Part shown: positions 38,817 through 55,101 of the stretch, in pieces | How the letters are laid out: each line of letters begins with the position of its first letter | Position numbering within the stretch: position 1 is the first letter of the stretch | From: a virus | Taxonomy: Duplodnaviria; Caudoviricetes | Virus record (IMG/VR): IMGVR_UViG_3300049489_000417 | Span: 1-59,183 of that record | DNA: 59,183 bases | Direction: 5' to 3' (one strand) | Translations under genes and position numbers: made by a program | The notes under the pieces: generated by a model | Told to the model about the DNA's origin: nothing | Database searches by the model: none | The model's input: the letters and a program-made list of their open reading frames with translations, nothing else

Positions 38817-40478
38817 TTATGCTGACATGTGTCCGCCGCCGCGGGTGTCGTTGCTTATGAACTTGCTCAGATTATCCTTCCAGGACTTAACCCCCGGCTG
38901 CTTAGGCTGTGGACGCGGCTTCTTGTCGACACACAGGTTCACTGCCCAGGCTAACGCATCAACTATATCATCATGTACCCCAGCGGGGAAGCGCAACATC
39001 TCGTTTACCGCCGTCTCGGCGAAGCTAGCCCCCTGAGGGAACCAAAACTTACCATGCTGCAACTTCCCTTGGAAGCTAGCAGCGCGCGCTAGCTTGTCAG
39101 TGAGGGGCCGAAGCTCTTCGTACGACGGATAAAAGTCCGCTTGCTGGAAGGCGTCGAGCACATAAGGACGTATCGCCTTCCATATGTGCGTATCTTCAAA
39201 ACCGACGAGCAGTGGGCAAGACTTTGTGGTACCCCACTTCTGTGCAAAGTCGATGATCGCCGACGTGATCGTATGCGAGTCTCCGCGGATCCGAACCATG
39301 TCCACGAAATGCAGATTATTCGCCGCATCCTGTACGAGGGTAACCCCGACTGTCCAGTCATTATGCGCTTTCTCCCCAATCGCAAAGTCCCACGCCTGAT
39401 ATACGTTGACGTTCTGCATCGCCGGTGGCTGCGGCTCCCACTTGATCCACTCCTTCTGAAAGAACATCCCCTCGTCAGGAACTGGGTTCTGCTGGTACAA
39501 GGCGCTCCACACACGTGGTGTCTGGTTCGCCTTGATAGACGTCATCATCTGCGCGTTGTAGCGCTCCGGATGGAGGGGGTCACCTGGAATCCGTACGAGG
39601 CGATGCTCTTCCGGCTTCTCCAGACAGTTGACGCCGGAAGACAGTAGTGTCTGACGAGGCCAGTAGTCAATACTACTTCTCTCTTCAGCGACTTCATCGC
39701 TGGTAAGGCGGACCAGACGATTCGTCGGCTCATGGATGAACTCGTACGTCTCTGCTATGGCTGGGTAAATAACAACTTCGAACTGATCGGCGGCTTCGTC
39801 CGAGTGCATCGCGGACAAAATCCTCCCACCCAGGTCGTCGTCGTGCCATCTTGTCTGTATCAAAAGTACCCCACCGCCTGGTGCCAGGCGCGTATATGCA
39901 GTTGACCAGTACCATTCCCACACCCCATCTCGTGTTATGGCGCTGTCAGCCTCTTCCTGGTTCTTGACGGGGTCGTCAATGATCAAGATGTGCGCGCCCT
40001 TGCCCGTAATACCACCCCCAACACCGGCGGCTGTGAAGCCGCCACCGTGCAAGGTGTTCCAAGCTTCTGCTGACTGACTGTCTGGATCCAGTTTCGTCTC
40101 TGGATAGAGCGGGCCATACCCCGGGTCTCGCACGATCTCGCGCACTTTGCGCGAAAACTTCATCGGGAGGTCGAGGTTGTATCCGCAATTGATGATTTCG
40201 TGATCAGGGTAATGACCGAGGTGCCACGCGGGGAACCGGATCGAGGCCAACTCACTCTTTCCGTGTCGGGGAGGCATGAAGATCGCAAGCCTGGGAGACT
40301 TCTTCGCAACCACGTCTCGAGAAAACTGCTCGAGTCGCTTGGCGATGTCGTTATGAATCCAACCGGCTTCATATTTTGGGTAAAAACGCTTCGTAAAGGC
40401 TATCAAAGACCGGCGAGCAAGGGCTCTTGCTGCAAATTCCGCCTTTACTGGCTGGGGAAGAGTGTTGAAATCGGTCAT
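38817..40478 (-). CDS. terL: terminase large subunit
   Basis: MPPRHGKS Walker A, ITGKGA, IIDDP Walker B, QTRWHDDD, LYQQNP, AWDFA, HDDIVDA nuclease motifs. Confidence 0.97.
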   Translation of the reverse strand: MTDFNTLPQPVKAEFAARALARRSLIAFTKRFYPKYEAGWIHNDIAKRLEQFSRDVVAKKSPRLAIFMPPRHGKSELASIRFPAWHLGHYPDHEIINCGYNLDLPMKFSRKVREIVRDPGYGPLYPETKLDPDSQSAEAWNTLHGGGFTAAGVGGGITGKGAHILIIDDPVKNQEEADSAITRDGVWEWYWSTAYTRLAPGGGVLLIQTRWHDDDLGGRILSAMHSDEAADQFEVVIYPAIAETYEFIHEPTNRLVRLTSDEVAEERSSIDYWPRQTLLSSGVNCLEKPEEHRLVRIPGDPLHPERYNAQMMTSIKANQTPRVWSALYQQNPVPDEGMFFQKEWIKWEPQPPAMQNVNVYQAWDFAIGEKAHNDWTVGVTLVQDAANNLHFVDMVRIRGDSHTITSAIIDFAQKWGTTKSCPLLVGFEDTHIWKAIRPYVLDAFQQADFYPSYEELRPLTDKLARAASFQGKLQHGKFWFPQGASFAETAVNEMLRFPAGVHDDIVDALAWAVNLCVDKKPRPQPKQPGVKSWKDNLSKFISNDTRGGGHMSA

Positions 40479-41065
40479 TTACCGAGGTCTTCAATCACAT
40501 GTGCACGAAGTTCGTCACTATTACTGTTGTTTTTCAGTGTTTCGCGTACTTCTAGCACCTCGCCTTCGATCTCTTTGGCGTTATCGGCGGCGATTTTCAG
40601 CAATTCTTCGTCACTTAGGGTCTCAAACTGGCTCATTAGCCGCTTGTGAGTGACGTCCATCTGGATTTTCTTCACTTCAGGCGCGTAATACCCACACATA
40701 CGCCCGACTTCGCGCCACCCTTGGATCATAACCTCTGGGTCTGCTTGTATTTTGGCCATCTCGATGGCTTCCATCATGCCGTCGAGGACGATTTCACGGT
40801 TCAGTTTCAAGTGTTTCTCCGCGTGAACGAAGCGTTCTGTAATTGCCTGCTTCACAACCGGCGCTGAAAACAGCCCCCTGGCTCCCGCCGGGCACTTATA
40901 CCCCGCGTACTCTAGCGCAGCGGTTTGCGTCATCCCCAAGTCTACAACGCCTTTGACCGCAAGCTTCTGCTTTTCGGTCAGCTGCGCTTCTGCCTGCATC
41001 AAGGCTGAGTGGGGGCGGATGTGTTTGCGTCCTTTTCCGGACGCGAATCTCTGTTTGGAAGCCAT
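40475..41065 (-). CDS. terS: terminase small subunit
   Basis: LTEKQ...QTAALEYAGY HTH, GRMCGYYAPE, LSDEEL; overlaps terL start. Confidence 0.85.
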   Translation of the reverse strand: MASKQRFASGKGRKHIRPHSALMQAEAQLTEKQKLAVKGVVDLGMTQTAALEYAGYKCPAGARGLFSAPVVKQAITERFVHAEKHLKLNREIVLDGMMEAIEMAKIQADPEVMIQGWREVGRMCGYYAPEVKKIQMDVTHKRLMSQFETLSDEELLKIAADNAKEIEGEVLEVRETLKNNSNSDELRAHVIEDLGK

Positions 41066-41090
41066 ATGAGCACTATACCAAAAAAATTCT

Positions 41091-41182
41091 AAAATTTTTA
41101 GAAAAGTTGGTGAATGAGGGTGTGAAGGCTACACCAAAAAATCCCGAAAATTTTTAGAAAAGTTGGTGAATGAGGGTGTGAA
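41091..41182. repeat. 36-bp direct repeat x2 (41091-41126, 41147-41182) at the late/early divergence
   Basis: AAAATTTTTAGAAAAGTTGGTGAATGAGGGTGTGAA twice, 56-bp period. Confidence 0.95.
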
Positions 41183-41274
41183 CTCCTCTATCCCCTTGTC
41201 TCTTTGACGAGGGGATACTTCGGATGCGACTTGGCATAGGGCCAAAAAGCATTCTTTTTTATTAGGAGAGCACC

Positions 41275-41502
41275 ATGACCACAGCAAGCAATATCCTCAA
41301 GCATCTCAACTCCAGCAACGCCGCACAGACCACCGAGCCCAAGGCTAGCTGGTCCATGAGGTTTCATGCCGCTTGTATCCAGAGCGCCAAGGACAGTGCC
41401 GCTTTTAAGCGTGCTGTTGTCGCCTCGGCGAAGTACGGTTCTAGCGATGAAGGCGTTGCAGACTACCTTAGCCGCCTTACGGCTGCTGGTCTTCTGAAGT
41501 AA
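41275..41502 (+). CDS. early hypothetical protein
   Basis: AGGAGA RBS, 75 aa. Confidence 0.75.
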   Translation: MTTASNILKHLNSSNAAQTTEPKASWSMRFHAACIQSAKDSAAFKRAVVASAKYGSSDEGVADYLSRLTAAGLLK

Positions 41503-41568
41503 CAATACTTATACGGGAGCTTAGGCTCCCGTATTCTCGTTGCACACTTCCGTGCTAAGGAGAGAATC

Positions 41569-41661
41569 ATGCAAGTAACTTACATAACGTTGGACGACGC
41601 TATTGCGTCGCTGAGCGTTAGCGAACTGGAAGCTGCTATAGCTGCGTGGTTGTGCAGCTAA
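41569..41661 (+). CDS. 30-aa early peptide
   Basis: TAAGGAGAG RBS; MQVTYITLDDAIASLSVSELEAAIAAWLCS. Confidence 0.55.
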   Translation: MQVTYITLDDAIASLSVSELEAAIAAWLCS

Positions 41662-41756
41662 GCTTCTAGCTGATCGCATACGTGAGCTTCGGCTCACATA
41701 TGCATATTGCACGCTTGGGTATCAGGCGCGTACCCATCATCTTTAAGGAGAGTAAC

Positions 41757-41951
41757 GTGAAACTCGTGTTGTTTATGACCGTTGTGTTGGTTGCGGTACT
41801 GTACACCGCGGCTCATGTTGGCGTCGCTATTTATGCTGGCGAGGCCGCAGGTTGGATTCCGCCATTTACATTGTTTGCAAGTGGCGGGATTGCTGCGTTT
41901 TTAATCTTAGCCATTATTGGCTGTATGGATGCGCTGGATAAACGTGGTTAA
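41757..41951 (+). CDS. early two-TM membrane protein
   Basis: TAAGGAGAG RBS before GTG; hydrophobic. Confidence 0.7.
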   Translation: MKLVLFMTVVLVAVLYTAAHVGVAIYAGEAAGWIPPFTLFASGGIAAFLILAIIGCMDALDKRG

Positions 41952-42045
41952 GTTCGGGGGCCTCGGCCCCCTTACTTATGTTGCACACTTAGTTCAGCAT
42001 GGAGCTGTTCTGAGGTTGTGTATCGCCATTTCCATGGAGGATATT

Positions 42046-42885
42046 ATGGCAAACAAGTCGTTTGAGCAGTACAAGGCAGAAGTTCAGGCTCAGCAAAGCA
42101 TGAGTCAGGCTACTCCTACGGAGTCCGACTACTTGGTCGGTCACATTTGTGGCACGAAGAACAATCGTTCGTTCTTTCGTATCGTGCCCGTGATCTCTTA
42201 CCATGCCGTGGCTTTGGCCGCAGCTGGTGACAAGGACGCTTCGGGTGGGCTCATTGAGTGGTTGTCGGCGTCGGCATCGCAGTTGCCGAATACTGACGGC
42301 CACACGAATGTGGGTCTTGAAACCCTTCTCGCACAGTATTTCGGTGCGCGTTCTGGTTTCAGCCGTAACATGGCTCAGCTGGCATTGCGGGCCAAGAGCG
42401 ATAAGGCCCCTGGGGCTTTGTTTGCGAACGGCCGTCCTGTGGCCATCGACCCGGAAAAGGTCGTGGGCTTCGCTGATGAAGTTGCTCGTCAGATTCTGAT
42501 GAAGGGTCAGAAAGAGCGGCGCGCTCCGTTGGATCTGCTTCCGTTGAATTTCGACGCGAAGCTGCTCAACAGCGCTCTTATTGGCCAAGTCAAGCGGACG
42601 ACGGACAATGCGTTTCGTTGTATGCCCATTCTGATGGAGACCGAGATTCCGGTTCTTCAGCGGATGGTTGCGACGTCTGCTGGTGCTGATATTTTCTCGC
42701 GGATGAAGGATTTCGCGAAGCGCCTGAACTTTGTCACTCCTGGTTCGTATAACCAGGCTGTCATTCTGGCTGCTGCATCTGCTGCCGGGTATGACAAGGA
42801 CGGTCTTCTTCTGATGGCCGCTGAGCAGCAGAAAGAGAGCGCTGTTCTTGGTACTGGCGAGCTTGCTGGTTCTGTCGTTCTGTAA
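42046..42885 (+). CDS. early hypothetical protein
   Basis: GGAGG RBS before MANKSFEQ; 279 aa. Confidence 0.85.
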   Translation: MANKSFEQYKAEVQAQQSMSQATPTESDYLVGHICGTKNNRSFFRIVPVISYHAVALAAAGDKDASGGLIEWLSASASQLPNTDGHTNVGLETLLAQYFGARSGFSRNMAQLALRAKSDKAPGALFANGRPVAIDPEKVVGFADEVARQILMKGQKERRAPLDLLPLNFDAKLLNSALIGQVKRTTDNAFRCMPILMETEIPVLQRMVATSAGADIFSRMKDFAKRLNFVTPGSYNQAVILAAASAAGYDKDGLLLMAAEQQKESAVLGTGELAGSVVL

Positions 42886-42954
42886 TACGTAGGTGGGTAA
42901 GGGAGCTTAGGCTCCCTTACTTGTATTGCCCATTTCGGGCATAAGGAGAGTGAA

Positions 42955-43341
42955 ATGAATATTGGATCGGCGCTGTTTCAACTCGCGGCTACTATTAGCA
43001 GCGAAACTGAGGATCATGAAGCTGCTGGTGATCTGTTTCGTCTTGCTGATAAGTACGCTAAATCAAATATTGATGCGTGGATGGTCCATCAAGGTACACA
43101 TAATCATCTTATGAGTGAGTACCAGTATGTTTCGGGTCAACTCGGCGTGTACCAAGCTGAATCGAGCCGTCGCGCGTTTGAGATGCGCAACATGAATGGG
43201 TGGATTCGTAAGCTTTCGTACGCTTATGTTGCCGCGCAAGAGCGTATTGAGCATCTCCTGGTTAGTTACGGCTACACGAATTACGAAGCTCCGAAATCGG
43301 AGACTTTGGAGTTCGCGCGGCAGATAAATACTCAGGTGTAA
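42955..43341 (+). CDS. early hypothetical protein
   Basis: TAAGGAGAG RBS; 128 aa. Confidence 0.8.
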   Translation: MNIGSALFQLAATISSETEDHEAAGDLFRLADKYAKSNIDAWMVHQGTHNHLMSEYQYVSGQLGVYQAESSRRAFEMRNMNGWIRKLSYAYVAAQERIEHLLVSYGYTNYEAPKSETLEFARQINTQV

Positions 43342-43517
43342 GGTTGCGGGGTTAGGGGGCTTTGGCCCCCTTTCCCGTGCTGCACAATTGGGTTAAACCA
43401 TTAGTGCTCCGCCATACCCTCACGCACCATTTCGCGGCTGCGCCGCGGAGTGGTGTGGGGGTTGGGTTTCCCCTACTTGCGCAATGTTGCGCACAACACC
43501 TGTAAAGGAGATACATC

Positions 43518-44225
43518 ATGAGCGAAGTTAGCAGTACTACCTTCGATACCAGCAATCGCATCAGCGTTTGCAACACGTTTGGTTTCATCCCTAAGGATGG
43601 CCCGGTCTTCAAGGTTAGCGATGGTCGTGATTATATCGCTACCAAGGAGTTCAAATTCCAGATCGCCAAGATGGCGGTGCGCAGCGCGGTTCGCCGTGCT
43701 CGGTACTTGTGCGAACAGCCGCTGGAAGCCGCCGATTTGGCACAGTGCTTCAGTGGTGCGGGCTCTACGGAGACCGGTATCGAGCTCGACTGGGGTTCCA
43801 TGAACTTCGACGAAGTCAAGCGCGCTGTGCAGGGTATCCCGCGCTCAGTCGCAGAAGCCCTGTGGAAGGCCCCGACCAAGGGCATCAAGCATGGAATCAA
43901 TCGCGCGCTGGAACGCGAAGCGAATGCAATGCTGCTCTCGGCTGAAGTCCCGAGCATCGATTGGGGTGCATTGGTCGAAGCTCGCCAGCAACAAGGCGAT
44001 GAAGACCTCCTCAAGGAAATCGAGGAAACCCCGGAATCGGTCTTCGAGATCTTCCCCGTTTCGGGTATCGAGGGATCTTGGGATTACATTCCCGGGCGTA
44101 CGAAGGCTGTGGCCTTTGAAGCGGTTGTTCGGTTCGAAACCAACGACCACCTGGCTCCCACGGAGCAAACCAACGCAATCTTGGAGAGGATCGCAAATGA
44201 AGAGAATTTCGGTACTGTCCTTTGA
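43518..44225 (+). CDS. early hypothetical protein
   Basis: AAGGAG RBS; 235 aa. Confidence 0.85.
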   Translation: MSEVSSTTFDTSNRISVCNTFGFIPKDGPVFKVSDGRDYIATKEFKFQIAKMAVRSAVRRARYLCEQPLEAADLAQCFSGAGSTETGIELDWGSMNFDEVKRAVQGIPRSVAEALWKAPTKGIKHGINRALEREANAMLLSAEVPSIDWGALVEARQQQGDEDLLKEIEETPESVFEIFPVSGIEGSWDYIPGRTKAVAFEAVVRFETNDHLAPTEQTNAILERIANEENFGTVL

Positions 44226-44466
44226 ATTGGACACCCGGATGGCATTCACGGCCCTGGAACAGCTGATTCCGGGGATCGAGGACGCCACATCCGATAACGA
44301 CCTGATCGTACTACTCGAAGGTCGTGGATTCACCGACTTCGACGCACTCCGCGCGTACATCTGCGGAGAAGTCGAGAAGAACGGTGGGGACCCGGAGTGC
44401 ATCTGCGCTCCGGATATCGAAGAAATCGTGGAGGAATACGACGATGACCTCAATTCAATTGGCTGA
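44197..44466 (+). CDS. acidic small protein
   Basis: GGAGAGG RBS before MKRISVL; very D/E-rich. Confidence 0.7.
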   Translation: MKRISVLSFELDTRMAFTALEQLIPGIEDATSDNDLIVLLEGRGFTDFDALRAYICGEVEKNGGDPECICAPDIEEIVEEYDDDLNSIG

Positions 44467-44620
44467 TCTGCCAAAGATCGACCGTCTGCGGTATCAACTC
44501 AACGATCTGACGTTGAGTTCGCATGTTACCAACAAGACCCTGGATGAAATTCGCCGTATCCAGGCCCAGATCAGCGAACTTGAAGACTTGGAAAGCGAAT
44601 CGGCCTCTCTCCCCGAGTAG
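44444..44620 (+). CDS. small helical protein
   Basis: GGAGG RBS before MTSIQLADL. Confidence 0.65.
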   Translation: MTSIQLADLPKIDRLRYQLNDLTLSSHVTNKTLDEIRRIQAQISELEDLESESASLPE

Positions 44621-44632
44621 CAATCCACGCTA

Positions 44633-44660
44633 GCATGCGGCGTCACGCATGCAGTTTTTT
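44633..44660 (+). terminator. rho-independent terminator
   Basis: GCATGCG/CGCATGC stem then T6. Confidence 0.75.
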
Positions 44661-44683
44661 ACAACTCATGAAGGAGAATCACC

Positions 44684-44902
44684 ATGAGCAACGCACAAAC
44701 TACCGGCATCAAAGTCGGTCTCGCAATCCGTGATGGCGCGGCCGGTGTCGGTAACGGTCTCAAATCCGCCAAGAACTTCGTGTGCGGTATCGCCGCGGGG
44801 ATCCGCGGACCGAACACGGCCGTGCAGAGCGCAGCCGATGGACACAAGACCGAGGCGGTTGACCCGCGTATCGCGGCGATCCTCAGTCGCCATGGTTCTT
44901 GA
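44684..44902 (+). CDS. hypothetical protein
   Basis: AAGGAG RBS; 72 aa. Confidence 0.7.
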   Translation: MSNAQTTGIKVGLAIRDGAAGVGNGLKSAKNFVCGIAAGIRGPNTAVQSAADGHKTEAVDPRIAAILSRHGS

Positions 44903-45152
44903 ACTGCTGGCACTAGGCGCGGTATCCGCACTTGGGTTGTTCATCCTATTCATGCGGCTACCCCGCTTTATCTCGGTGCCCCTGCTTCATATGCCGTTTG
45001 TACTCGATTTCGGGTTCACGGCACTCATGATGTGGATGCACTGGGGTACGTTCGGCGGGATCATGGTAGCCACGTTCGCCGGGCTCTGTGGGTCCGCCGG
45101 TATTTCGCTCGCAAGAGCTGTTGTCCTCAAACCATGGAGTAAAGCCTCATGA
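44892..45152 (+). CDS. three-TM membrane protein
   Basis: Start MVLELLALG; MHWGTFGGIMVATFAGL. Confidence 0.75.
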   Translation: MVLELLALGAVSALGLFILFMRLPRFISVPLLHMPFVLDFGFTALMMWMHWGTFGGIMVATFAGLCGSAGISLARAVVLKPWSKAS

Positions 45153-45445
45153 AACACATCGTTAACATCTTTTTCAACCACACCGGTGAAATCCAACTCA
45201 CCAAAAACGACAACCGAGTGTTCTACAAACTCGGTACCCGGGTCAAAATCGGCAACAACGTGGTCCAGATCACACTGGACGATCAAAGCAACCCGATTGC
45301 AACCGTGGACGGCAAGCCGGGAGTTCTTGAGCCGATCTCGGACAACGAACACGGGTTCGGTTTCCGTTTGGACATCCCCGTTGAACCGGTCATGTCCATG
45401 ACCGAATGGGCTGCGAAGTTTGCACCGGGCAAGAAAGCAGCATAA
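45149..45445 (+). CDS. hypothetical protein
   Basis: ATGA coupling; 98 aa. Confidence 0.75.
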   Translation: MKHIVNIFFNHTGEIQLTKNDNRVFYKLGTRVKIGNNVVQITLDDQSNPIATVDGKPGVLEPISDNEHGFGFRLDIPVEPVMSMTEWAAKFAPGKKAA

Positions 45446-45773
45446 GGGTGACTCCCTGAGCGTACGGCGAACAGTCAGGCATACCGGAAGCTGAGTAATT
45501 TACCGGTGTAGGTACGCGTAGTGGGACGCCGCTGGGGCACACGCGAACGCCGAAAATCACGCCAGCTCCGGACGCGGTAACCGGAACACCAACCTAACGC
45601 AGTTCTATACGCGCTACACCTGACAGGCGCACGTAACACAACAGGTAGAAAGAGAACGTATCGCCGATGTTTAGATTCGAGCTTATATGACAGATGCGCT
45701 CGCCAATAACTGTCCCTCGACACCAGCTCCTAGGTAAGCCGGCAGAGGATTAAGCGCTATACCGGAGGTCGGC

Positions 45774-45893
45774 ATGAGCAACTGCACATACGTAGCAACA
45801 GCGATGAACATTATCTTCTCCATGCATCTGGAGTTAATACTGTACTTCGCGTTCTCGGCTGCTGTCGTTAAGATAGTAAACCGCATTTTCTAA
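45774..45893 (+). CDS. 39-aa hydrophobic peptide
   Basis: GGAGG RBS; single TM-like stretch. Confidence 0.45.
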   Translation: MSNCTYVATAMNIIFSMHLELILYFAFSAAVVKIVNRIF

Positions 45894-45912
45894 GCCTGAA
45901 AAGGAGAGAAGC

Positions 45913-46167
45913 ATGTCTGAATCACGCAAAATCGGTCGAGGAAAACGTTCCCCGGCTCGTCAGAAGTACAAGAACACCATGCAGCGTGACCGCAACAAGC
46001 GGTTGAACGTCGAAGCCGAAGGCAAGCGTAAGGCGAAATACGCAGAACGCCGAAAGAACTTCCCCCGACTCCGTGGATCCTCCCGCCGAGCTCGGCGAGC
46101 GGGCATCCCGCGCCAAGGAACCGACGCACGAACGGCTTGGGACCTTGCCCACAAGGCTGGCGACTAA
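45913..46167 (+). CDS. very basic Arg/Lys-rich protein (nucleic-acid binding?)
   Basis: AAGGAGAG RBS; 84 aa. Confidence 0.75.
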   Translation: MSESRKIGRGKRSPARQKYKNTMQRDRNKRLNVEAEGKRKAKYAERRKNFPRLRGSSRRARRAGIPRQGTDARTAWDLAHKAGD

Positions 46168-46238
46168 GCCTATTCCTACTAATCTACATAGAGATTAGTA
46201 GGAATTAGTAGTCCAGGTAGTAACACACAGTAAGCCCA

Positions 46239-46840
46239 CCACCGAAAAATGCACTGGTAGTCAATATTACGGTTGAAATCCGTTGCCTATCTGGTAAGGC
46301 GTAACAGTGCAATCGAAAGACGGTAAACAACATTGGTAAAAGCAGCAACAAGTGCTACTCGAGAGAGTAAAAGCTAGACTACGATCTAGATACCAAAGGA
46401 TTAATGTTGGGTGAATCTCCTCAAAGTCGGCGAACGCTTCACATAGCATCAACGTATCCCCATAACTACAGGTCAAGGCTTGCAAGTGTGTGGGTAAGAG
46501 CGCAAGATAAAGTACCTTGCGGATGTATGCCAACGCCGAGCCAAGCCTGAAAACGCGAAAGCGGGTAACTGCGTAATTCACCTGAAATGGAAACTCAAAT
46601 CAGGACGTAAGTGCTTTCAGGAAGGTGTAGAGACTAGACGGGGAGTACCTAAAGCAGTACGAGGGATTAAGCAGAGGAATGAAACTTACGAAAGTATAGT
46701 GTCGGCTGCTAAACCAAAATAACTGGTTGCGTCGTTGAAAGCCAGAATACTGCAATGGTAAAGACATAGTCCAGACCACGAACACTGCATTTCCCATTCA
46801 CAAGGGTTTGGGTCAGTGGCAGCGAAAGCTGAAGTGGTAG
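46239..46840 (+). ncRNA. group I ribozyme (IC3-like core); 5' boundary uncertain
   Basis: P3 CTCCTC 46417-22/GGGGAG 46640-45; P4 GTCGGC 46426-31/GCCGAG 46535-40; GAAGGTGTAGAGACTAGACGG 46621-41; AAGACATAGTCC 46761-72 (P7 GACTA/TAGTC); P9 with GAAA loop; probable terminal G at 46840. Confidence 0.88.
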
Positions 46841-46863
46841 CTCTGGTTAGGGCAACGTACAAC

Positions 46864-46940
46864 GGGCTCGTAGCTCAGACGGTTAGAGCAAAGGACTCAT
46901 AATCCTTCGGTCCTTGGTTCGAATCCAAGCGGGCCCACCA
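46864..46940 (+). tRNA. tRNA-Ile2(CAT) (lysidine type; elongator Met not excluded)
   Basis: Full cloverleaf, GACT-CAT-AATC anticodon arm, TTCGAAT T-loop, ACCA end. Confidence 0.9.
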
Positions 46941-46964
46941 TCGATATTTACAAGGAGTAAACGC

Positions 46965-47345
46965 ATGAAACGACTCAACCAACGACAACAAGAACACCTC
47001 AACCGCAAGTTCTCAGAGCTGTGCGACCAATTCCTGGAACAGGAATACAAGAAACTGTCGACGTCCGGGGTGGTGGTGACCATGCCGATCGAAGTCCGAC
47101 TCTCAATCAGCCGCAATGGGTACACCTACGTTGATTACGACGCCAGCAAGGACAAGATCATCGCCAAAGCAGCCAAGACTACCCCGCAAGGCATGAAACT
47201 CGTGTCGACCGCAAAGAAACTCGCCGAACTTAGTGGCCGTATTAATGAACTCAAGGCCAAGTTCCGCGAGCGCATCCTGTTCTCTTCGAACGACTTCGAA
47301 GAGACCAACGCCTTGTTTGCCCAGTTCGTGGAGGCAATCAAATGA
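46965..47345 (+). CDS. hypothetical protein
   Basis: AAGGAG RBS before MKRLNQ. Confidence 0.8.
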   Translation: MKRLNQRQQEHLNRKFSELCDQFLEQEYKKLSTSGVVVTMPIEVRLSISRNGYTYVDYDASKDKIIAKAAKTTPQGMKLVSTAKKLAELSGRINELKAKFRERILFSSNDFEETNALFAQFVEAIK

Positions 47346-47648
47346 CAGCGCTCACCCTTGCCCTCCTCGAGCAAATCGCCTCGGGACCAACAAAGGGTGA
47401 AAAAAGCCAAACCCAAAGAACCCGAGCTGTGGAGTGTTCGCCAGGTCCTCATACACGCCGGCCTCAACCCGTGCATGTCCCAGGTCCGCAAGATGCAGAT
47501 CATCAAGGAGCTGGGGGTCACACCCAAGGTGACCACCGGCGTTCAACGGACGTGGATGCGCTTCGAGCCGAACCACGTAATCCCCAAGATCAAGCTCTGG
47601 CAAGCCTCGCAGAAGGAAAAGGCCGCGAAAGCCTTGCGTAGAGCCTGA
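47342..47648 (+). CDS. basic hypothetical protein with apparent +1 frameshift near 47396
   Basis: MTALTLALLEQIASGPTK joins VKKAKPKEPELW...; codon bias switches frame at AAGGGTG. Confidence 0.6.
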
Positions 47649-47788
47649 TTCCATCTGTCATACAAAGTGGTCACTGCCTAATTTTTAGTCAGTAAGCATT
47701 TGCTTATATTGCATGACATATAAGAATTCGTAGCTGCCTAAATTTTAGGCATGCTGCACCGCAATAAGTGTCGAAAATCCGGAAAAGC

Positions 47789-48209
47789 GGTCACCCTGGC
47801 AACATTTTAGTAGTCGTGTAACACTTTGAAGTGTAACAGCCTCAAAGCCAGTACTGGCAAGGGCGCCAGAGACGCTGACCCCCTAAAAAACAGGGTGTTA
47901 CACTTTTTTTTATTTTCAAACAAGAATATTGAATATCTAACTTTTTAGCGTGTTTTCTAACTTGTAAAAAACATGCTGAACTCGGTTTTCAAAGTGTAAC
48001 AAGTGTTACTAAATCGCTAAAACCCTTGCCACCACTGGGCCGGAGCCTGTTCCACTTCGAGGTGCTTTTGTAACCTTTTCTGTTGCCAGGGTGACCACCT
48101 TGCTTTCGAACCCCTTCGAAACCCTTGGCATTACAGCGTTTCACTGTTACACTTTGAAGTGGTCACCCTCTCATAAAACACTTACCACTCAGACCAAGTG
48201 GTCACCCAA
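47789..48209. other. probable replication origin: large imperfect inverted repeat, AT-rich core, iterated motifs
   Basis: Arms 47789-47863 and 48023-48096; repeated GTGTAACA/TGTTACAC and GTGGTCACCC; upstream of primase-helicase. Confidence 0.65.
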
Positions 48210-48225
48210 ACAGCGAGGTAGTAGC

Positions 48226-48474
48226 ATGCCGATCAAAGAAGGGAACCTTATACTGCGTTGCGTCATATCCAAAGAGGATATGGACCTGCTTCTAGGCCTT
48301 CACCCGTCGAGAAAACCGAGCCTGTGCCTCAAACAACTCTTGCGCACTGCTGCAGAGCACAATCAGTTTCTGGCTACCAAGGAAGTTGCCCGGAACAGGG
48401 CACTCAAGAAGCGCCTTCGCGAGCAAGTGCTCGCAATGGCCGACACATTAAACGAGCTGGGAGAGCGGGAATGA
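48226..48474 (+). CDS. small protein, possibly ribbon-helix-helix DNA binder
   Basis: GAGG RBS before MPIKEG; strand-helix-helix pattern. Confidence 0.6.
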   Translation: MPIKEGNLILRCVISKEDMDLLLGLHPSRKPSLCLKQLLRTAAEHNQFLATKEVARNRALKKRLREQVLAMADTLNELGERE

Positions 48475-48728
48475 ACGTCCTACACACTACCCTGCTCAGC
48501 GGCTTCCTGGCCGGCATGAACGCCTTCTTCGCTGTACAAGGCGGCGATTGGTGGTGGATGAACGCCATAGCAAGCGTAACCCTGCTCGTAGTCGGCTACC
48601 AAGGAGCCATGCTCAGAACCCAGAGCCTGTCTCAGGCTGTATCACTCTATATCACGGCGATTCTCGCCGCCCACGGGATAAAAAACACTGATCTCCCCCA
48701 CGAAAAAAAGGAGTTGCGGACCCCCTGA
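48471..48728 (+). CDS. two-TM membrane protein
   Basis: ATGA coupling; hydrophobic segments. Confidence 0.7.
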   Translation: MNVLHTTLLSGFLAGMNAFFAVQGGDWWWMNAIASVTLLVVGYQGAMLRTQSLSQAVSLYITAILAAHGIKNTDLPHEKKELRTP

Positions 48729-48742
48729 CAACGGCCTAGACT
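48714..48742 (+). promoter_or_regulatory. sigma70-like promoter for primase-helicase
   Basis: TTGCGG-17 bp-TAGACT with upstream A-tract. Confidence 0.55.
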
Positions 48743-48767
48743 TCACGCCTCAGACAAGGCCCAGACC

Positions 48768-51038
48768 ATGAACATCTACTTCCTGGAAGCAAAAGTACCC
48801 CTCACAAAGACTTTCAGACCAGATGGCACCTCAGACCAATACCCGCTTATCTCGAAGTTCACATCCTCGGAAGTCAGTGTCGCCTCTATCGAGGACCTCT
48901 ACGACGCCCTTGTAGCCCACAGCCAGAAGGGCCACTGTCTGCTCAAAGGCGCCCTCTCGCGCCCCCTTGTAAACGAGTCCCGCGCAGGGGCCACAGACCC
49001 TGACGCCCCCACGCAGTGGATCTGCATCGACATTGATGGCCTAACCGCCTACAAGGACCTGGACGCATGGATATCGACCACCCCGTTAGCAGACGTCTCT
49101 CATATAGTGAACTGGTCAGCGTCTTCTGGCCTGAAACCCGGCATTCGAGCCCACGTCCTCGTCTTGCTAGCTGCATTCGCCTCCCCAGCCACCATCAAGG
49201 CCTGGCTCAAATCTCTAAACCTTGGCGACGCCAATATCTCTGGGCAATTAGGCCTTACACGGGCCAAGGCCGTCATCAAGTGGGTCATAGACCCGACAGT
49301 GGCACAGAATGACAAGCTTATCTACACAACCGCTCCCGTTCTCATACCACCGCTGGCCGACCCTCACCCGGGGCTTTCCAGGTACGTACTCAATCTACGT
49401 ACCCAGCCATCGCTTACCCTGCCACCGATTGATGTTGAGAGCGTTCGCGCCGCAGAAACTAAGAAAACCAACGAACTGAGGGCCCTGGAAGGGCTCCCAG
49501 CCAAGAGGACTCACTCCTATGTACGTGCTGGCCAAGTTGAATACCTCTCAAAGCCTGGCGTCACGGCGGAAGTCACGGGCGTTAAAAAAGATAGGGGTTA
49601 CACCTATCTTAACCTTAACGGCGGTGATTCGTGGGGATACTATCATCCGGACAACGTCGTCGAGTTCCTTTATAACTTTAAGGGCGAACCGACCTATAAG
49701 CTTAAGGAAATTTGCCCCGACTACTACTCCACCGCGGTTAGTGAGCTTCAATCGACCCCGGACAAAACGGGCCGTGTCTTTTTGGCTTTTAGAGAGTTTC
49801 GAACCGGTCAATATTGGAATGGAGTCTTTGTCGCAGATAATAATTCGCTTAGTCTCGCGGCGGCCCGCAGTACTCAGCAGCTTGACCACTTCATGGCCCA
49901 GTATCAGGCCCCATGGGACGGCGTACCTAAAGACTGGTCTATCGAGTATGCCCCATCCAAGGCTAAGCGCGTGGACTTTGACCAACGAATAGTCAACACA
50001 TACGAAGCCCCTGGTCACGCCTACGATCCCAACACTCAATACACGCTTCCGCCCATAACCAAAAAGGTCATAGAACATGTTTGTGGCGACGTCCAGATTG
50101 CACAAATTTTCATTAATTGGCTCGCGTACATCGTCCAGACTAAACAGCGCCCTTCGACAGCATGGCTTTTCCACGGCACCCAAGGTACTGGTAAGGGTCT
50201 TCTTGCCAACTTCGTATTGCCTGCCCTCCTTGGCAGGGCAAATACGGCTCTACGACGCCAATCTGAACTGGAGGAGCGGTTCAACAGCTATCTCGAAGGA
50301 AAAATGGTCGTTGTGGTGGACGAAGTGCAGATGGGTGCACTATCCGGCGCTAAGCGAATCAACTCAGATATCAAAAATTACATCACAGAAGACACAATCA
50401 CCATTCGTCGTATGCGTGTGGACGGGTACTCGATTCCTAACACTTGTTCGCTAATCTTCTGTTCGAACATGCCAGATCCGGTCATCCTCGATGAGACTGA
50501 CCGGCGCATGCACATGGGCGCCTACCAGCCTAACAAGCTGCAGATCACACAAGCTGAAGTAGTCCAGCTCGAGAAAGAAGCTGAGCAACTTAACGGCTAT
50601 TTGCTGCAGTTCGCAGTAGATCCCGACAAAGCTCGATACCCACAATGGACTGAAGCCAAGAAAAATGTACTCGATCTGTCTCTATCCGGCCCTGAGGTTC
50701 TCGCTCGGGCCATTAAAGCAGGGGATTTCGCATACTTTGTTGATCAGCTACCCGATACAAGGCTTCAAACAACAATCAACCGCGAAGTCCAACTTAAAAA
50801 TTACGAGGCAACCCTGCGTGGCATTGCCAGGCGCGGAAATCATCTTACACGTGACGAGGCCCATACACTCTTCGTATGGACGCAGGGTACTGGCGAGGCC
50901 AGTACAACGAAGTTTGCAACATATCTTAAGCACCTTCGACTCGAGCTCAAGAAAATCCGTATTGACGGCCAGGTTGTTACGGCGATTCCAGTCAACTGGA
51001 ACGTTCTAGAAGCCGACAAAGCGAGGCTGGGCATATGA
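48768..51038 (+). CDS. primase-helicase (prim-pol N-terminus, SF3/DUF5906 helicase)
   Basis: CIDID and RAHV primase motifs; HGTQGTGKG Walker A, VVVDE Walker B, FCSN, DRR. Confidence 0.9.
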   Translation: MNIYFLEAKVPLTKTFRPDGTSDQYPLISKFTSSEVSVASIEDLYDALVAHSQKGHCLLKGALSRPLVNESRAGATDPDAPTQWICIDIDGLTAYKDLDAWISTTPLADVSHIVNWSASSGLKPGIRAHVLVLLAAFASPATIKAWLKSLNLGDANISGQLGLTRAKAVIKWVIDPTVAQNDKLIYTTAPVLIPPLADPHPGLSRYVLNLRTQPSLTLPPIDVESVRAAETKKTNELRALEGLPAKRTHSYVRAGQVEYLSKPGVTAEVTGVKKDRGYTYLNLNGGDSWGYYHPDNVVEFLYNFKGEPTYKLKEICPDYYSTAVSELQSTPDKTGRVFLAFREFRTGQYWNGVFVADNNSLSLAAARSTQQLDHFMAQYQAPWDGVPKDWSIEYAPSKAKRVDFDQRIVNTYEAPGHAYDPNTQYTLPPITKKVIEHVCGDVQIAQIFINWLAYIVQTKQRPSTAWLFHGTQGTGKGLLANFVLPALLGRANTALRRQSELEERFNSYLEGKMVVVVDEVQMGALSGAKRINSDIKNYITEDTITIRRMRVDGYSIPNTCSLIFCSNMPDPVILDETDRRMHMGAYQPNKLQITQAEVVQLEKEAEQLNGYLLQFAVDPDKARYPQWTEAKKNVLDLSLSGPEVLARAIKAGDFAYFVDQLPDTRLQTTINREVQLKNYEATLRGIARRGNHLTRDEAHTLFVWTQGTGEASTTKFATYLKHLRLELKKIRIDGQVVTAIPVNWNVLEADKARLGI

Positions 51039-51307
51039 CCAACCCGTTCGTAGCTGTTCAAGGCTTCTTCATGGACGATGTGTCTAATGGACTGCATATC
51101 GAAGAGCTCTACGAGTCGGAAGGTTTAAACGCAATCCCACGCGTCCCCGTACATAACTTCACATGGGCATCGGAGTTAACTATATGGCAGTCATCTTTAA
51201 CCCGAACCACAAGTTCAAGTGCACCATCTGTAAACAACGAAAGCCCCGAAAAGGGGGAACTCAACCCGGCAGACCCTTCATCTGCCTCCAATGTAAAGAG
51301 GAAATAG
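51035..51307 (+). CDS. hypothetical protein
   Basis: ATGA coupling; 3' part overlaps next ORF. Confidence 0.45.
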   Translation: MTNPFVAVQGFFMDDVSNGLHIEELYESEGLNAIPRVPVHNFTWASELTIWQSSLTRTTSSSAPSVNNESPEKGELNPADPSSASNVKRK

Positions 51308-51375
51308 CAAATGGCAAAGATCACTCTCACCCGCGCGCTGGTGGAACTCAAGACCCTGGACGCAAGAATCAGTAA
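51184..51375 (+). CDS. small zinc-ribbon protein
   Basis: GGAG RBS; CTIC...CLQC. Confidence 0.55.
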   Translation: MAVIFNPNHKFKCTICKQRKPRKGGTQPGRPFICLQCKEEIANGKDHSHPRAGGTQDPGRKNQ

Positions 51376-51949
51376 CACGATCAGCCTTACCTGCTTCGTC
51401 GGTATCGTTAAAGGTACCGGCGACAAACAGGTAGTGGTCGGCAGTGCAGAGACCCCCGCGGCCCTCGAACAACGCATCCGCTCTGGCTTTCAAAGCCTGG
51501 ACGACCTCATCATCCGTCGCAACAAGATCAAAGCCGAACTAGTCCAGGCCAACGCAACCACGCCCGTGACCATCGCCGGCTGCACGTACACCATCGCCGG
51601 CGCTATCGAATACAAGCGTGCCATGGAGGTCGAGCGACAGATCGTTATGCACATGCGGGCACAGCTGGCCAAAGCCGAGCAGATTGTCCAACAGGGCAAC
51701 ACCAAGATGGAGACCGACATCGAGACTGCAGCCGTCGCCGCAGCTGGCGGGGACAAGAAGGCCGTAAGCACCGAGGTCTTCGAGATGGTCGCCGCGCCGC
51801 GTCGCGCCATGCACAAGCATGCGCTGCTCGACCCGGCCAATCTTCGCGAGAGCATCGAGCAGCGCGTGAAGCTCATCGAGGCCTTCGCGGCTGAGTGCGA
51901 CGTCGCACTGTCGGAAGTCAATGCACGCACCGAGATCGAGGTGAACTAA
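51311..51949 (+). CDS. long helical-hairpin/coiled-coil protein (resembles DIP1984/DUF6847-type family)
   Basis: TLTRALVELKTLDARI...ANATT.VTIAG..YTIAGAIEYK...LLDP...DVALSEVNARTEI. Confidence 0.8.
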   Translation: MAKITLTRALVELKTLDARISNTISLTCFVGIVKGTGDKQVVVGSAETPAALEQRIRSGFQSLDDLIIRRNKIKAELVQANATTPVTIAGCTYTIAGAIEYKRAMEVERQIVMHMRAQLAKAEQIVQQGNTKMETDIETAAVAAAGGDKKAVSTEVFEMVAAPRRAMHKHALLDPANLRESIEQRVKLIEAFAAECDVALSEVNARTEIEVN

Positions 51950-51950
51950 T

Positions 51951-52268
51951 ATGGCCCAGGTCACTCGCTATATCCACCTCCGCTTCAAGGACAGCGACGG
52001 GCGCCCTACTTCCCGAGGTGGGCTAACAGTCGCCTATCTCATCGATACCGAACTGGACTCTGTGATCCGGTGGTCAGCTGCCCGCTGTTCTTCAAACGAC
52101 AACTTCTGCAAGAGTACCGGGCGGACGATCTCACAAGGCCGGTTGCACAGCCCACGACTTAGTCGTACGATCTCGCCTTTGGCTGAGAAACTGTTTGTGA
52201 AACTGATGCACGAGACTCCGGTCAATCAGCTCTTCATCAACAGTCGGCCGATAGTGTTTATTCGCTAA
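51951..52268 (+). CDS. conserved phage protein
   Basis: GGLTVAY...ARCSSNDNFCKSTGR.I..GR motif. Confidence 0.8.
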   Translation: MAQVTRYIHLRFKDSDGRPTSRGGLTVAYLIDTELDSVIRWSAARCSSNDNFCKSTGRTISQGRLHSPRLSRTISPLAEKLFVKLMHETPVNQLFINSRPIVFIR

Positions 52269-52339
52269 TGTAGCTCAGTTGGTAGAGCAACCGCCTTGTA
52301 AGCGGTAGGCCAGTGGTTCGACCCCACTCATTAGCACCA
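52264..52339 (+). tRNA. tRNA-Thr(TGT)
   Basis: Full cloverleaf, ACCGC-CTTGTAA-GCGGT, ACCA end. Confidence 0.95.
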
Positions 52340-52347
52340 GTTTCAGA

Positions 52348-52423
52348 CGCGGGGTAGCGCAGTTGGAAGCGCGCCTGGCTCATACCCAGGAGGCCGTAGG
52401 TTCGAGTCCTACCCCCGCATCCA
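52348..52423 (+). tRNA. initiator-type tRNA-fMet(CAT)
   Basis: CGCGGGG acceptor with C1xA72 mismatch, CAT anticodon, CCA end. Confidence 0.92.
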
Positions 52424-52430
52424 GTTTTAC

Positions 52431-52508
52431 GACCGCCAATGTTCCAAGGCTCGGCGAGTTGGACTCCAAATCCGACTGTGTGGGGTTCGATTCCCTGGGT
52501 GGTCGCCA
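52431..52508 (+). tRNA. tRNA-Trp(CCA), atypical D arm
   Basis: GACCGCC/GGTGGTC acceptor, TTGGA-CTCCAAA-TCCGA, GCCA end. Confidence 0.85.
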
Positions 52509-52515
52509 CGTTTTT

Positions 52516-52877
52516 GAGTCTCATCAGCAGCGAACAAGTGAGAACTCTCAGCCCGTTCCTGGCCCGGGTTAAGCCAGGAAATTTGACTAGCTCAATGGTA
52601 GAGCGACACCCTGCTAAGGTGTATGTATCAGGTTCAATTCCTGAGTCTATGACGATGACTGACAGTCCGCCCGGGAGAGGGGATAACCCGATGAACCCGG
52701 AGACTTAAAAGGTCAACAGTCAGCGCTCAACGGTCAACCATGAACAGTCAACTTGTAACGGTAACACACTGAGGTCTAAACACCCATCGCTCTTAAAATC
52801 CTGGGTTAACGTTTTTGTGGGTTAGCTCGACAAGACCCCCACTTGTACGCCAGGCTGCTGTTTGATGAGACTCACCA
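52516..52877 (+). ncRNA. candidate large structured RNA with tRNA-like domain and heptamer array
   Basis: Perfect terminal inverted repeat 52515-52526/52863-52874 ending ACCA; further end pairings; tRNA-like D/AC/T arms 52585-52647; 7-nt repeats 52711-52765. Confidence 0.75.
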
Positions 52878-52890
52878 CACACTACACCCT

Positions 52891-53091
52891 ATGCCAGATA
52901 CCCGATTCCATGCAGAGTTCTACATCGACAAACAAGGATACCTCACAGGTCGTGTCCGCTTTCCTAAAGACGACAGCGCAACACTGGAAGCTCTCAACGC
53001 CATCATCGATGAGTACGCCAAACGACTCGAAACAAGCCACCACGACGTGATGAACCTCATACGGAGGCAGCACAATGAGTCAGAAAGTTGA
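52891..53091 (+). CDS. hypothetical protein
   Basis: Start MPDTRF right after the RNA element. Confidence 0.6.
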   Translation: MPDTRFHAEFYIDKQGYLTGRVRFPKDDSATLEALNAIIDEYAKRLETSHHDVMNLIRRQHNESES

Positions 53092-53236: not shown

Positions 53237-53311
53237 AATGAAAACATCCGAACCGCATGGCTTGATGCTTAACGCACGCGCCGCCATCGCAAAGGCACGG
53301 GGGGAATAACC

Positions 53312-54905: not shown

Positions 54906-54908
54906 AAG

Positions 54909-55100: not shown

Positions 55101-55101
55101 G

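Follow-up and report, generated by a model that had tools for sequence, protein, structure and literature searches.

A viral contig from the IMG/VR collection (record IMGVR_UViG_3300049489_000417, positions 1 to 59,183; Duplodnaviria, Caudoviricetes) carries a large group I ribozyme that interrupts no gene. The whole of this 59,183-bp single contig, which is 77% complete by estimate, was analyzed and is called the window below. Judged from its helices and their covariation, a group I ribozyme of ~620 nt and of IC3 type occupies 46233–46853 on the plus strand. It is complete and has an intact-looking catalytic core, the subgroup name IC3 being our presumption and not a computed assignment. We consider it very probable that the element is a free-standing group I ribozyme whose internal guide sequence (IGS) pairs, with covariation among relatives, with a hairpin in its own 3' tail. 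A preliminary description made from the sequence alone had already recognized an orphan group I ribozyme at this place; that much was borne out, and a tRNA-type IC3 descent can be added. The pairing of guide and tail hairpin, which is the decisive feature of the element, was missed in that description. In what follows, the window ribozyme is the window's own copy, and an orphan is any free-standing member of its family.

Relatives were retrieved by window-type junction patterns from metagenome, viral and genome collections. Ten were orphans, namely the window ribozyme, L123 (the same as L134), L124 (the same as L135), L125, L130, L132, L137, L156, L157 and L159, and ARAGORN found no split tRNA around any of them. 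Nine other members were introns in tRNA anticodon loops (L126, L128, L129, L131, L133 and L150–L153). In all ten orphans a 5-bp hairpin followed the sequence GUGG-UA, beginning 2 nt past P9.0, and the first three bases of its loop were the strict complement of the element's own IGS, ending in U. This complement stood at tail offset 7–9 after GUGG in 10/10 orphans and in 0/9 tRNA introns. The IGS of the window ribozyme (46233–46236, plus strand; A46233 followed by GCC at 46234–46236) lies directly 5' of P2. Its tail hairpin (46840–46853, plus strand; −5.3 kcal/mol) consists of the stem GCUCU (46840–46844)/AGGGC (46849–46853) and the loop GGUU (46845–46848). Pairing of A46233–C46236 with G46845–U46848 places a predicted G.U reaction site at U46847|U46848. 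The earlier statement that there was no clear P1 with a U-G pair does not hold, because this G.U pairing with the 3' tail exists and a GGU also occurs at 46216–46218.

Three combinations of IGS and loop triplet were observed: GCC with GGU (window ribozyme, L125, L156 and L124), GGU with ACU (L123, L130, L157 and L159) and GGG with CCU (L132 and L137). An alignment of the ten orphans had the G.U pair in every one; the next pair was GC in six and CG in four, the one after that was CG in four, UA in four and GC in two, and no position was unpaired. A fourth pair, A-U, was available in 7/10 orphans. The helix has the G.U wobble with the IGS that marks P1, with its substrate strand 3' of the core. 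For the IGS:loop helix, the tail stem, P3 and P7 together, 96% of cells were paired, compared with 75.3% after shuffling (0/500 shuffles reached the observed value) and at most 49% when the strands were slid. Among 138 candidate tails of all loci, the tail signature was found only in the ten orphans plus two duplicate records. In a tree of the core blocks, whose supports were modest, each of the two major clades included the GCC/GGU combination. The top two pairs of the tail stem were U-A in 10/10 and 8/10 orphans, giving the form UU-xxU-N-AA, and on the best reading of this pattern the tail stem-loop would mimic an uninterrupted anticodon stem-loop. In the literature (open-access papers and bioRxiv, supplements aside) we found no report of phage group I ribozymes that stand free of genes and carry a substrate hairpin at the 3' end.

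As a whole, the orphan class appeared to lack both hallmarks of intron ends, because the omega-G was not conserved and an upstream complement of the IGS occurred at chance level. In alignments with related tRNA introns, G46840 of the window ribozyme falls in the omega-G region, in agreement with the earlier proposal of a probable omega-G there. Across the orphans, the aligned position was a G in only 6/10 and acted as a base pair of the tail stem (GC in six, AU in two, other in two), and L156 had no G in the omega stretch. In 9/9 tRNA introns the IGS, made up of the three nucleotides that directly precede the P2 strand, matched the exon end 7–22 nt upstream, with the IGS/exon-end combinations GUG/CAU, GGU/ACU and GAG/CUU. 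A complement of the IGS lay within 60 nt upstream in 6/10 orphans, against a chance expectation of 0.57; of the four GCC-type orphans, three had a GGU 13–22 nt upstream.

As the simplest account that covers all ten orphans, we propose a permuted P1, whose substrate strand, with U46847 in the G.U wobble, would have moved from its usual 5' place into the 3' tail. The tail stem would present this substrate as a mimic of an anticodon stem-loop, at the place where the bases of a 3' exon normally approach the guide strand. A stem beside the P1 triplet also agrees with the title of a paper by Zaug et al. in the reference list of PMC3984707. Exogenous guanosine or GTP would attack after U46847 (U46847|U46848), and a first step without a second would be expected because the omega-G is not conserved. 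The ribozyme would in this way cut itself off the downstream RNA, which is a tRNA precursor here and an mRNA in relatives, and the added G would stay on the new 5' end of the downstream RNA. Such a first-step-only reaction fits all ten orphans and splicing does not, because the omega position pairs as part of a stem and L156 lacks the G. First-step self-cleavage at U46847 is offered tentatively, as having somewhat less than an even chance of being correct. With more reserve still, we suggest that the orphans may form a new class of phage ribozymes of 460–620 nt with a permuted P1. Its members would be GTP-dependent self-cleavers that put a (tri)phosphorylated G on downstream RNA or, once released, would attack host anticodon loops. 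That the IGS:tail pairing serves as a functional P1, what the cleavage chemistry and cleavage site are, and how the phage benefits are all matters that we infer from these patterns.

The descent of the window ribozyme can be traced through the large members of its family, which as a whole range from 283 to 631 nt, the free-standing ones from 460 to 620 nt. All share the core words, a 3' end of the form CCAGACCAC ... GNGAAAN ... GUGGUA, and a P2 module in which an 8-nt strand is followed by AAAAAU, by a branched domain with GUAGUC...GGCGUAAC as its frame and by a GAAA mini-hairpin of two base pairs. Among the introns, L126, L128, L152 and L153 are inserted in tRNA-Leu(UAA) after U33, and L131 after U34; in tRNA(CAU), L129 and L151 are inserted after U36 and L150 after U33, and L154 was also named among the tRNA(CAU) 36|37 introns. 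After P9.0 the tRNA introns continue with UA[A/C]G and then the 3' exon (UAGUAGG in L152), and they have no tail hairpin. Their core blocks and those of the orphans were equally conserved, and the core-block tree mixed the window ribozyme with the tRNA introns. The peripheral domains could not be aligned between orphans, and intact cores with unalignable peripheries argue for long persistence under constraint. An 18-mer and a 21-mer core word of the window ribozyme were common to tRNA introns, as expected of the IC3/tRNA-intron lineage. From these shared core words and the tree, we take the window ribozyme to descend from large phage introns of tRNA anticodon loops, yet it is no gene's intron.

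Several features of the tRNA introns may be recorded alongside. In L133:6666–7296 the P5 extension contains a tRNA-like insert with a D-arm-like GTAGTTCAGTTGGTAGAA and a T-arm-like GGGTTCGAGCCCCGC, which ARAGORN did not call as a tRNA; in L153:1853–2465 the P2 domain contains a tRNA-like insert of similar pattern, again with no ARAGORN tRNA call, and L152 has several T-arm-like hairpins.

The window ribozyme splits no gene. The open reading frame (ORF) upstream of it stops short of the element, at 46167, and the tRNA and the ORF downstream are complete. ARAGORN found no split tRNA around the ribozyme with introns of up to 1200 nt allowed, and Rfam at E ≤ 10 found no partial tRNA or other RNA family flanking it in 45800–47100, so the earlier report of no split ORF and no tRNA half was confirmed. 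It had also reported no homing endonuclease ORF, and a domain search of the neighboring ORFs likewise found no homing-endonuclease domain. The tRNA(CAU) at 46864–46940 (plus strand) lies outside the ribozyme and is uninterrupted, as had been described; it is intact, has its CCA encoded, starts 10 nt past the tail hairpin and scored 71.6 bits with Rfam, and ARAGORN identified it as tRNA-Met(cat). On the plus strand, no sigma70-type promoter or terminator was found that would separate the ribozyme from the ORF before it or from the tRNA after it, and co-transcription of the three is therefore plausible.

The next feature 3' of the orphans was a tRNA in 3/10, an ORF in 6/10 and nothing clear in the remaining one, which lies on a short contig. 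An intact tRNA begins ~6–13 nt past the tail hairpin in the window ribozyme, L132 and L137, the last of these within an array of 14 tRNA hits; most of the six ORF-followed orphans had an evident ribosome-binding site before that ORF. Flanking ORFs were unrelated among the orphans, and we rejected flanking genes as a conserved partner of the ribozyme on this ground. The preliminary description had suggested processing of the tRNA leader. Processing of a downstream transcript is among the best-supported readings; the tie to this particular tRNA(CAU) is incidental, because the guide GCC mismatches its anticodon loop (ACU/CAU would need GGU/GUG) and a tRNA follows only 3/10 orphans. Two other earlier suggestions fared worse: tRNA repair gained no support, and an intron in a tiny unrecognized non-coding RNA is unlikely given flanks that are not conserved among relatives.

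A comparison with a ribozyme-less relative, as had been recommended, was provided by the sister phage contig L122, from a phage of roughly 80% identity, which has ~70–86% identity to the window over the aligned flanks, the same 84-aa-type upstream ORF and the same tRNA(CAU). There, only ~110 nt separate the upstream ORF from the tRNA, both neighbors are intact and the ribozyme is absent. This spacer (L122:8000–8109) contains a hairpin, then a GC-rich stem with TTTTCTTTCTT, which is terminator-like, and then a TTGCAA...-type spacer before the tRNA, so that the tRNA in L122 may be driven by its own promoter. The spacers of the two phages could not be aligned save for ~10 nt before the tRNA, which leaves the exact insertion junction unreadable, and searches for conserved gene order, one based on the primase-like protein and one on the post-tRNA ORF, both led to this one sister contig alone and to no closer empty site. 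Because the sister phage lacks it, the ribozyme is an accessory module of the phage lineage. Lack of conservation in relatives had been named beforehand as a sign against an orphan ribozyme. It applies to L122 and not to the class, which is conserved with covariation in other phages, and for this reason we regard the element as an accessory module and not as noise.

Further copies were sought in four public runs (X1–X4) whose contigs were compared with 45500–47700; the small shares of runs X2–X4 derive from relatives. No contig joined across the ribozyme, an absence that counts neither way. In the DNA run X1, which is probably the source sample, a unitig covering 46298–46548 had a depth of 100, compared with ~10 for the flanks, and loose ends revealed another context that joins at ~46229 and leaves at ~46850. 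RNA contigs of X2 (depth 37) and X3 (depth 928) cover 46298–46650 and are near-identical to the window up to 46548, differing mainly in the P6 extension. Many further contigs had the same core with the P5, P6, P8 or P2 inserts swapped for other sequences. These data indicate a widespread, expressed family with exchangeable peripheral modules, and they suggest that peripheral inserts are exchanged as modules among co-occurring copies. The breakpoints in X1 (46262/46298, 46548 and ~46810) coincide with borders of peripheral domains. Because the orphan flanks are unrelated, L122 is without the element, and X1 has both the raised depth and the loose ends of another copy, the element is best regarded as an autonomous module. 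That it is distributed patchily and has many copies in the sample would suit a semi-selfish mobile element as well as a useful one.

Several observations weigh against self-cleavage guided by the tail. The window ribozyme has both the upstream GGU (46216–46218) and G46840, which leaves room for ordinary splicing. The IGS:tail pairing is only 3 bp long, plus the A-U pair of seven orphans, and the ten orphans fall in ~four lineages, so that only 2–4 independent covariation events are represented. A 4-nt loop on a closed 5-bp stem does not easily pair with another strand, and because of this the RNA may switch between the hairpin and the guide pairing, with only one of them formed at a time. RNase P trims tRNA leaders anyway, which leaves a benefit of cleavage at this locus less obvious, and L122 does well without the element. 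The RNA contigs come from relatives and do not cover the tail, and are thus silent on cleavage.

The most direct alternative, which we judge unlikely, is an ordinary self-splicing intron in a non-coding leader. The GGU at 46216–46218 (plus strand), a strict complement of the IGS GCC, would then form P1 with it, the candidate 5' splice site, attacked by exogenous G, would be U46218|A46219, the 5' exon would attack after omega-G46840 to release a 622-nt intron and rejoin the spacer ahead of the tRNA, and the tail hairpin would be a structure of the 3' exon. Placed 15 nt 5' of the IGS, this GGU has the spacing of true introns (7–22 nt); there is a G at the omega-like position, three of the four GCC-type orphans share an upstream GGU, and the core cannot be distinguished from that of splicing relatives. 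What counts against splicing is that the upstream complement is at chance in the class and absent from L132, L123, L130 and L157, and that the omega position is a G in only 6/10 and covaries as a stem pair. The window ribozyme cannot form P10 with its 3' exon CUCUGG, and the other copy in X1 excludes the upstream GGU because the shared sequence starts only at ~46229. Nothing would select for splicing in a spacer, and yet the class is conserved. Pairing of the bases 5' of the IGS with the sequence after G46840 as P10 was looked for by eye and rejected as absent from the window ribozyme and inconsistent among orphans, as was a conserved hairpin formed by ligated exons, which works for the window ribozyme (CCAG/CUGG) and fails for L124 and L125. 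A second alternative is a decaying relic, an intron brought beside a tRNA by recombination and now inactive, with the match of IGS and tail due to chance. That L122 is without the element, that no interrupted gene needs it and that phage tRNA regions are mosaic would all agree with this. We nonetheless find it very improbable in view of ten orphans with unalignable peripheries but intact cores, compensatory changes in P2, P3, P7, the tail stem and the IGS:loop pairing, a tail signature exclusive to orphans, and near-identical copies at 10x depth in X1 and in RNA contigs of two other studies.

Two other explanations accept a free-standing ribozyme and differ in its reaction. It is quite improbable, in our view, that the element acts in trans, for example on tRNA anticodon loops presenting GGU (ACU or CCU in the case of relatives), with the tail as a tethered pseudo-substrate that occupies the guide or as an aid to self-maturation and with flanking hairpins and tRNA processing setting and protecting its ends. 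With a specificity of 3 nt, a nuclease acting in trans would hardly be safe, targets would lose the competition with a tethered substrate, and there is no evidence of any target. On the other hand, the tail hairpins resemble miniature anticodon stem-loops (UU-xxU-N-AA), the ancestors target anticodon loops, and L137, in its 14-hit tRNA array beside a HEARO RNA, would be released by RNase P/Z-type processing; related RNA is also abundant in metatranscriptome contigs, at the depths given above for X3 and X2 over 46298–46650. The remaining explanation is a P10-type pairing like that of the GIR1 ribozyme, in which G46840 would occupy the G pocket and the bond G46840|C46841 would be attacked by water or by U46847 through its 2'-OH, freeing the downstream RNA with a small lariat or a 5' phosphate, with the tail hairpin as an 'off' conformer. 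The guide strand does pair 3' of the omega region, which is a P10 topology, a G precedes the paired U by 7 nt in 7/10 orphans, and the competing hairpin recalls the on/off switch of the Didymium ribozyme. L156 lacks this G, however, L125 and L132 have it at a shifted position, and an invariant G.U wobble marks P1 and not P10. The core is as in ordinary splicing relatives, and the three-nucleotide lariat fold, the P15 pseudoknot and the twin-ribozyme position before an endonuclease gene were not seen. We accordingly give the GIR1-like explanation very little credence.

Among known systems, the closest to the window ribozyme are the IC3 tRNA introns of the Azoarcus tRNA-Ile(CAU) and cyanobacterial tRNA-Leu(UAA) type, a likeness judged from the tRNA introns retrieved here. 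Both have the P4/P6 and J6/7-P7-P3 words, a 3-bp P1 with a G.U pair and the P9.0 strands CCAC/GUGG; in both, L2 and L9 are GAAA loops and an endonuclease ORF is lacking. The window ribozyme differs in being 2–3 times larger, with every peripheral stem extended, and in lying outside any gene; its substrate triplet is 3' of the core on a hairpin of its own, and the omega-G is not conserved in its class. With the large phage tRNA introns it has the P2 module, the core and P9 in common, and L151 even has the same CACCACCG P2 strand. These introns, in contrast, split a tRNA, their IGS matches the end of the 5' exon (9/9), and they lack a tail hairpin. Two sources place such group I introns within tRNA, rRNA or protein genes, those of tRNAs in the anticodon loop, with U-1 and omega-G as their bounds (PMC3984707; 10.1101/2020.01.27.920355). 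The former also describes a group I ribozyme responsive to cyclic di-GMP (c-di-GMP) in a 5' untranslated region of Clostridioides difficile, a case of leader-located RNA processing that restores no gene, and thereby one described precedent of a leader-located, non-intronic bacterial group I ribozyme (PMC3984707). That ribozyme has an upstream aptamer, and its splicing builds or removes a ribosome-binding site, whereas no riboswitch family was found at E ≤ 10 in 45800–47100, the aptamer of an allosteric ribozyme being what was looked for, and the genes downstream of the orphans keep their own ribosome-binding sites or are tRNAs.

GOLLD, ROOL and HEARO are likewise large and ornate RNAs of phages or mobile elements; their folds are unrelated to that of the window ribozyme, which is recognizably group I. 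All three are often found beside tRNA genes. GIR1 of Didymium and Naegleria is derived from group I, has no conventional P1, pairs its 5' strand with its 3' tail and cuts itself from downstream RNA. It belongs to the nucleolus of eukaryotes, is nested within a second intron ahead of an endonuclease gene, forms a three-nucleotide lariat and has a remodeled core. None of these defining features was found in the window ribozyme, whose core is identical to that of splicing relatives and which has no endonuclease ORF nearby, and the spacing from the G to the paired U was 5–7 nt in the orphans, or there was no G. As to IStrons, in which a group I ribozyme is fused to a transposase of IS200/605 type, the ORFs downstream of the window ribozyme had no Pfam or PHROG match to a transposase, and the tRNA comes next.

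Known departures from group I self-splicing are few, namely the lariat-capping ribozyme, the c-di-GMP-controlled ribozyme and the IStrons. A phage class that is conserved, interrupts no gene and has a guide covarying with the element's own tail would add one more case in which nature has rewired the group I fold. If its members cleave themselves as proposed, they would be a bacterial-world counterpart of lariat capping. If the reaction stops at the first step, it would be a natural means of RNA processing by which downstream RNA receives a G, possibly with its triphosphate, and would bear on phage gene expression, RNA stability and RNA engineering.

The anatomy of the window ribozyme was resolved by model alignment, by comparison with relatives and by folding of single domains. 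Against 45800–47100 at permissive settings, the Rfam model Intron_gpI (RF00028) aligned to 46328–46780 over model positions 1–253, end to end, with 27.2 bits and E 1.3e-4 and with long insertions in P2, P5, P6 and P8. A search with a group I model had been recommended, and it succeeded in aligning the core and fell short in score, which is below the gathering cutoff of 50 bits, so that a whole-window scan at gathering misses the ribozyme. This low score reflects the model and the insertions, because the true tRNA introns L129 and L151 are also missed; at gathering, the model detected 0/10 of the large ribozymes, these two included. The family of large phage group I ribozymes has hitherto been unannotated, and split tRNA genes would escape phage annotation where the standard Rfam model overlooks their large introns. 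The group I core helices P3, P4, P6, P7 and P8 occur in order, and the P3/P7 pseudoknot is backed by covariation: in a pair count across relatives both P3 and P7 were 100% paired, with both sides changed in 4/6 pairs of P3 and 4/5 pairs of P7. This agrees with the complete core of the preliminary description. The large insertions that it noted in P2, P5, P6, P8 and P9 and its GNRA loops are borne out by the spans and domain folds; P9 is enlarged in addition to the four domains of the Rfam alignment, and the peripheral domains fold singly as closed, branched structures with GNRA-capped arms. A minimum free energy fold of the whole element missed the pseudoknotted core and was not used.

The P2 three-way module (46237–46324, plus strand), which covaries in the family, begins with the 5' strand CACCACCG (46237–46244), of which ACCG pairs with CGGU at 46321–46324, and continues with the AAAAAU joiner (46245–46250), the branched domain (46251–46310) and the GAAA-capped mini-hairpin (46313–46320). 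Across the family the P2 strands vary as ACCG/CGGU, CTAGCG/CGCTAG, TCTACG/CGTAGA and TTAACG/CGTTAA, the mini-hairpin as UC/GA, CC/GG and GG/CC, and the stem of the P2 domain as GCACUG/CAGUGC versus GAGUUG/CAACUC. P2.1 (46328–46409, plus strand) is a branched domain of 82 nt closed by CAACAUU/AAUGUUG, with a fold z-score of −3.1; by eye, its closing stems pair despite differing sequences in L132, L131, L133, L137 and L123. The stretch from J2.1/3 to J4/5 (46410–46434, plus strand) reads GGUGAAU, the P3 5' strand CUCCUC (46417–46422), AAAGU as J3/4, the P4 5' strand CGGCG (46428–46432) and AA. P5 (46435–46529, plus strand) is by its fold a branched extension of ~90 nt, a position at which relatives carry other sequences of 42–106 nt, and a P5 word specific to the window had no match in viral contigs.

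J5/4, the P4 3' strand and P6 occupy 46530–46623 (plus strand), with CGCCG at 46534–46538 and a 76-nt P6 extension at 46546–46621 that has a GAAA loop and a fold z-score of −3.4. The core segment CAACGCCGAGCCAAGC is located at 46531–46546 and the segment GAAGGTGTAGAGACTAGACGG at 46621–46641, both as quoted in the preliminary description; the tRNA(CAU) 36|37 introns L019, L090 and L107 hold both, L107 with one base different in the first, which is consistent with the likeness to the Azoarcus intron that had been proposed. The 21-mer ATGCCAACGCCGAGCCAAGCC of the J5/4-P4-P6 region was common to relatives, and the core 18-mer at 46624–46641 was found in at least 120 viral contigs; among the matches listed, 90/120 had an ARAGORN call of an intron-containing tRNA, with introns of ~180–350 nt. 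The distance from AGCCAAG to the core, which is the P6 span, was 85 nt in the window ribozyme, compared with 17–34 nt in 29/30 loci and 464 nt in L091. When loci with a lengthened P6 between exactly matching flanks were looked for, only L081, an ordinary tRNA-Arg intron, came up. J6/7, the P7 5' strand and the P3 3' strand follow at 46624–46645 (plus strand), with P7 GACUA at 46632–46636 and P3 GGGGAG at 46640–46645. P8 (46646–46765, plus strand) is by its fold a branched extension of 120 nt, compared with 26–109 nt in relatives, and at its base CCUAAAG...CAAUGG has the look of what we take to be a tetraloop receptor. The distance from the core to the S element, which is the P8 span, was 124 nt here, against 24–54 nt in 27/30 loci and 365–473 nt in L003, L058 and L121. 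The 3' part of the core (46767–46837, plus strand) is made up of the P7 3' strand UAGUC (46767–46771), P9.0 with CCAC (46776–46779) and GUGG (46834–46837), and a branched P9 with a GAAA loop at 46824–46827; the P7 3', P9.0 and P9 blocks were conserved in 18 relatives.

Upstream of the ribozyme and outside its conserved module is a strong hairpin (46172–46205, plus strand) of 14 bp with a 6-nt loop (−18.3 kcal/mol, z −6.1). It had been described as a 13-bp hairpin at 46173–46204 and is real. By eye, strong hairpins are also present 5' of the orphans L132, L137 and L157. The ORF before it (45913–46167, plus strand; stop codon 46165–46167) encodes 84 aa, is very basic (rich in K and R) and has no family matches. 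In L123 a short basic ORF likewise lies directly upstream of the ribozyme. A functional tie of the basic ORF to the ribozyme appears doubtful, because the sister phage L122 has a homologue and no ribozyme.

Genes of the window are on the minus strand up to ~41 kb and on the plus strand from ~41.9 kb. The small ORFs around the ribozyme match no known family, and a primase-like protein is encoded nearby at 48768–51038. ARAGORN called five tRNA genes in the window and Rfam at gathering four. Besides the one next to the ribozyme, the ARAGORN genes form a cluster 5.4 kb downstream (52264–52653, plus strand) of Thr-UGU, a second CAU, Trp-CCA and Ser-GCU, which has no associated ribozyme. BLAST of 46100–46950 and of 40000–59183 against GenBank phages returned tRNA matches only, and no cultured relative was found at that sensitivity. 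A 2730-aa ORF on the minus strand (window 3205–11397) had no Pfam match at E ≤ 0.01; by its size it recalls the virion RNA polymerases known from some podoviruses, or their giant tail proteins.

Of the matches listed, 30/120 were compact loci for which no split tRNA was called; they were considered as further orphans and rejected, as none had the tail signature. By eye, ~18 of these 30 were in one conserved protein-gene context, with an exon ending in ...CGGU| and the IGS GCC; the others had ORFs in P8 or were tRNA introns missed by ARAGORN. A compact (~200 nt) group I intron with the IGS GCC recurs at one site of a conserved phage protein gene, in L004, L008, L020, L033, L034, L051, L059, L062 and ~10 more. 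Two observations concern the surroundings of other orphans. A HEARO RNA (107.6 bits with Rfam) lies at L137:1734–1987, ~440 nt upstream of the ribozyme and within the array of 14 tRNA hits, on a contig of a metagenome-assembled genome labeled Hyphomonas. In L124 (reverse strand), the ORF upstream of the ribozyme contains a run of ~200 nt of GGAGC[A/G/T]-type hexamer repeats, at ~2060–2260 of the oriented locus.

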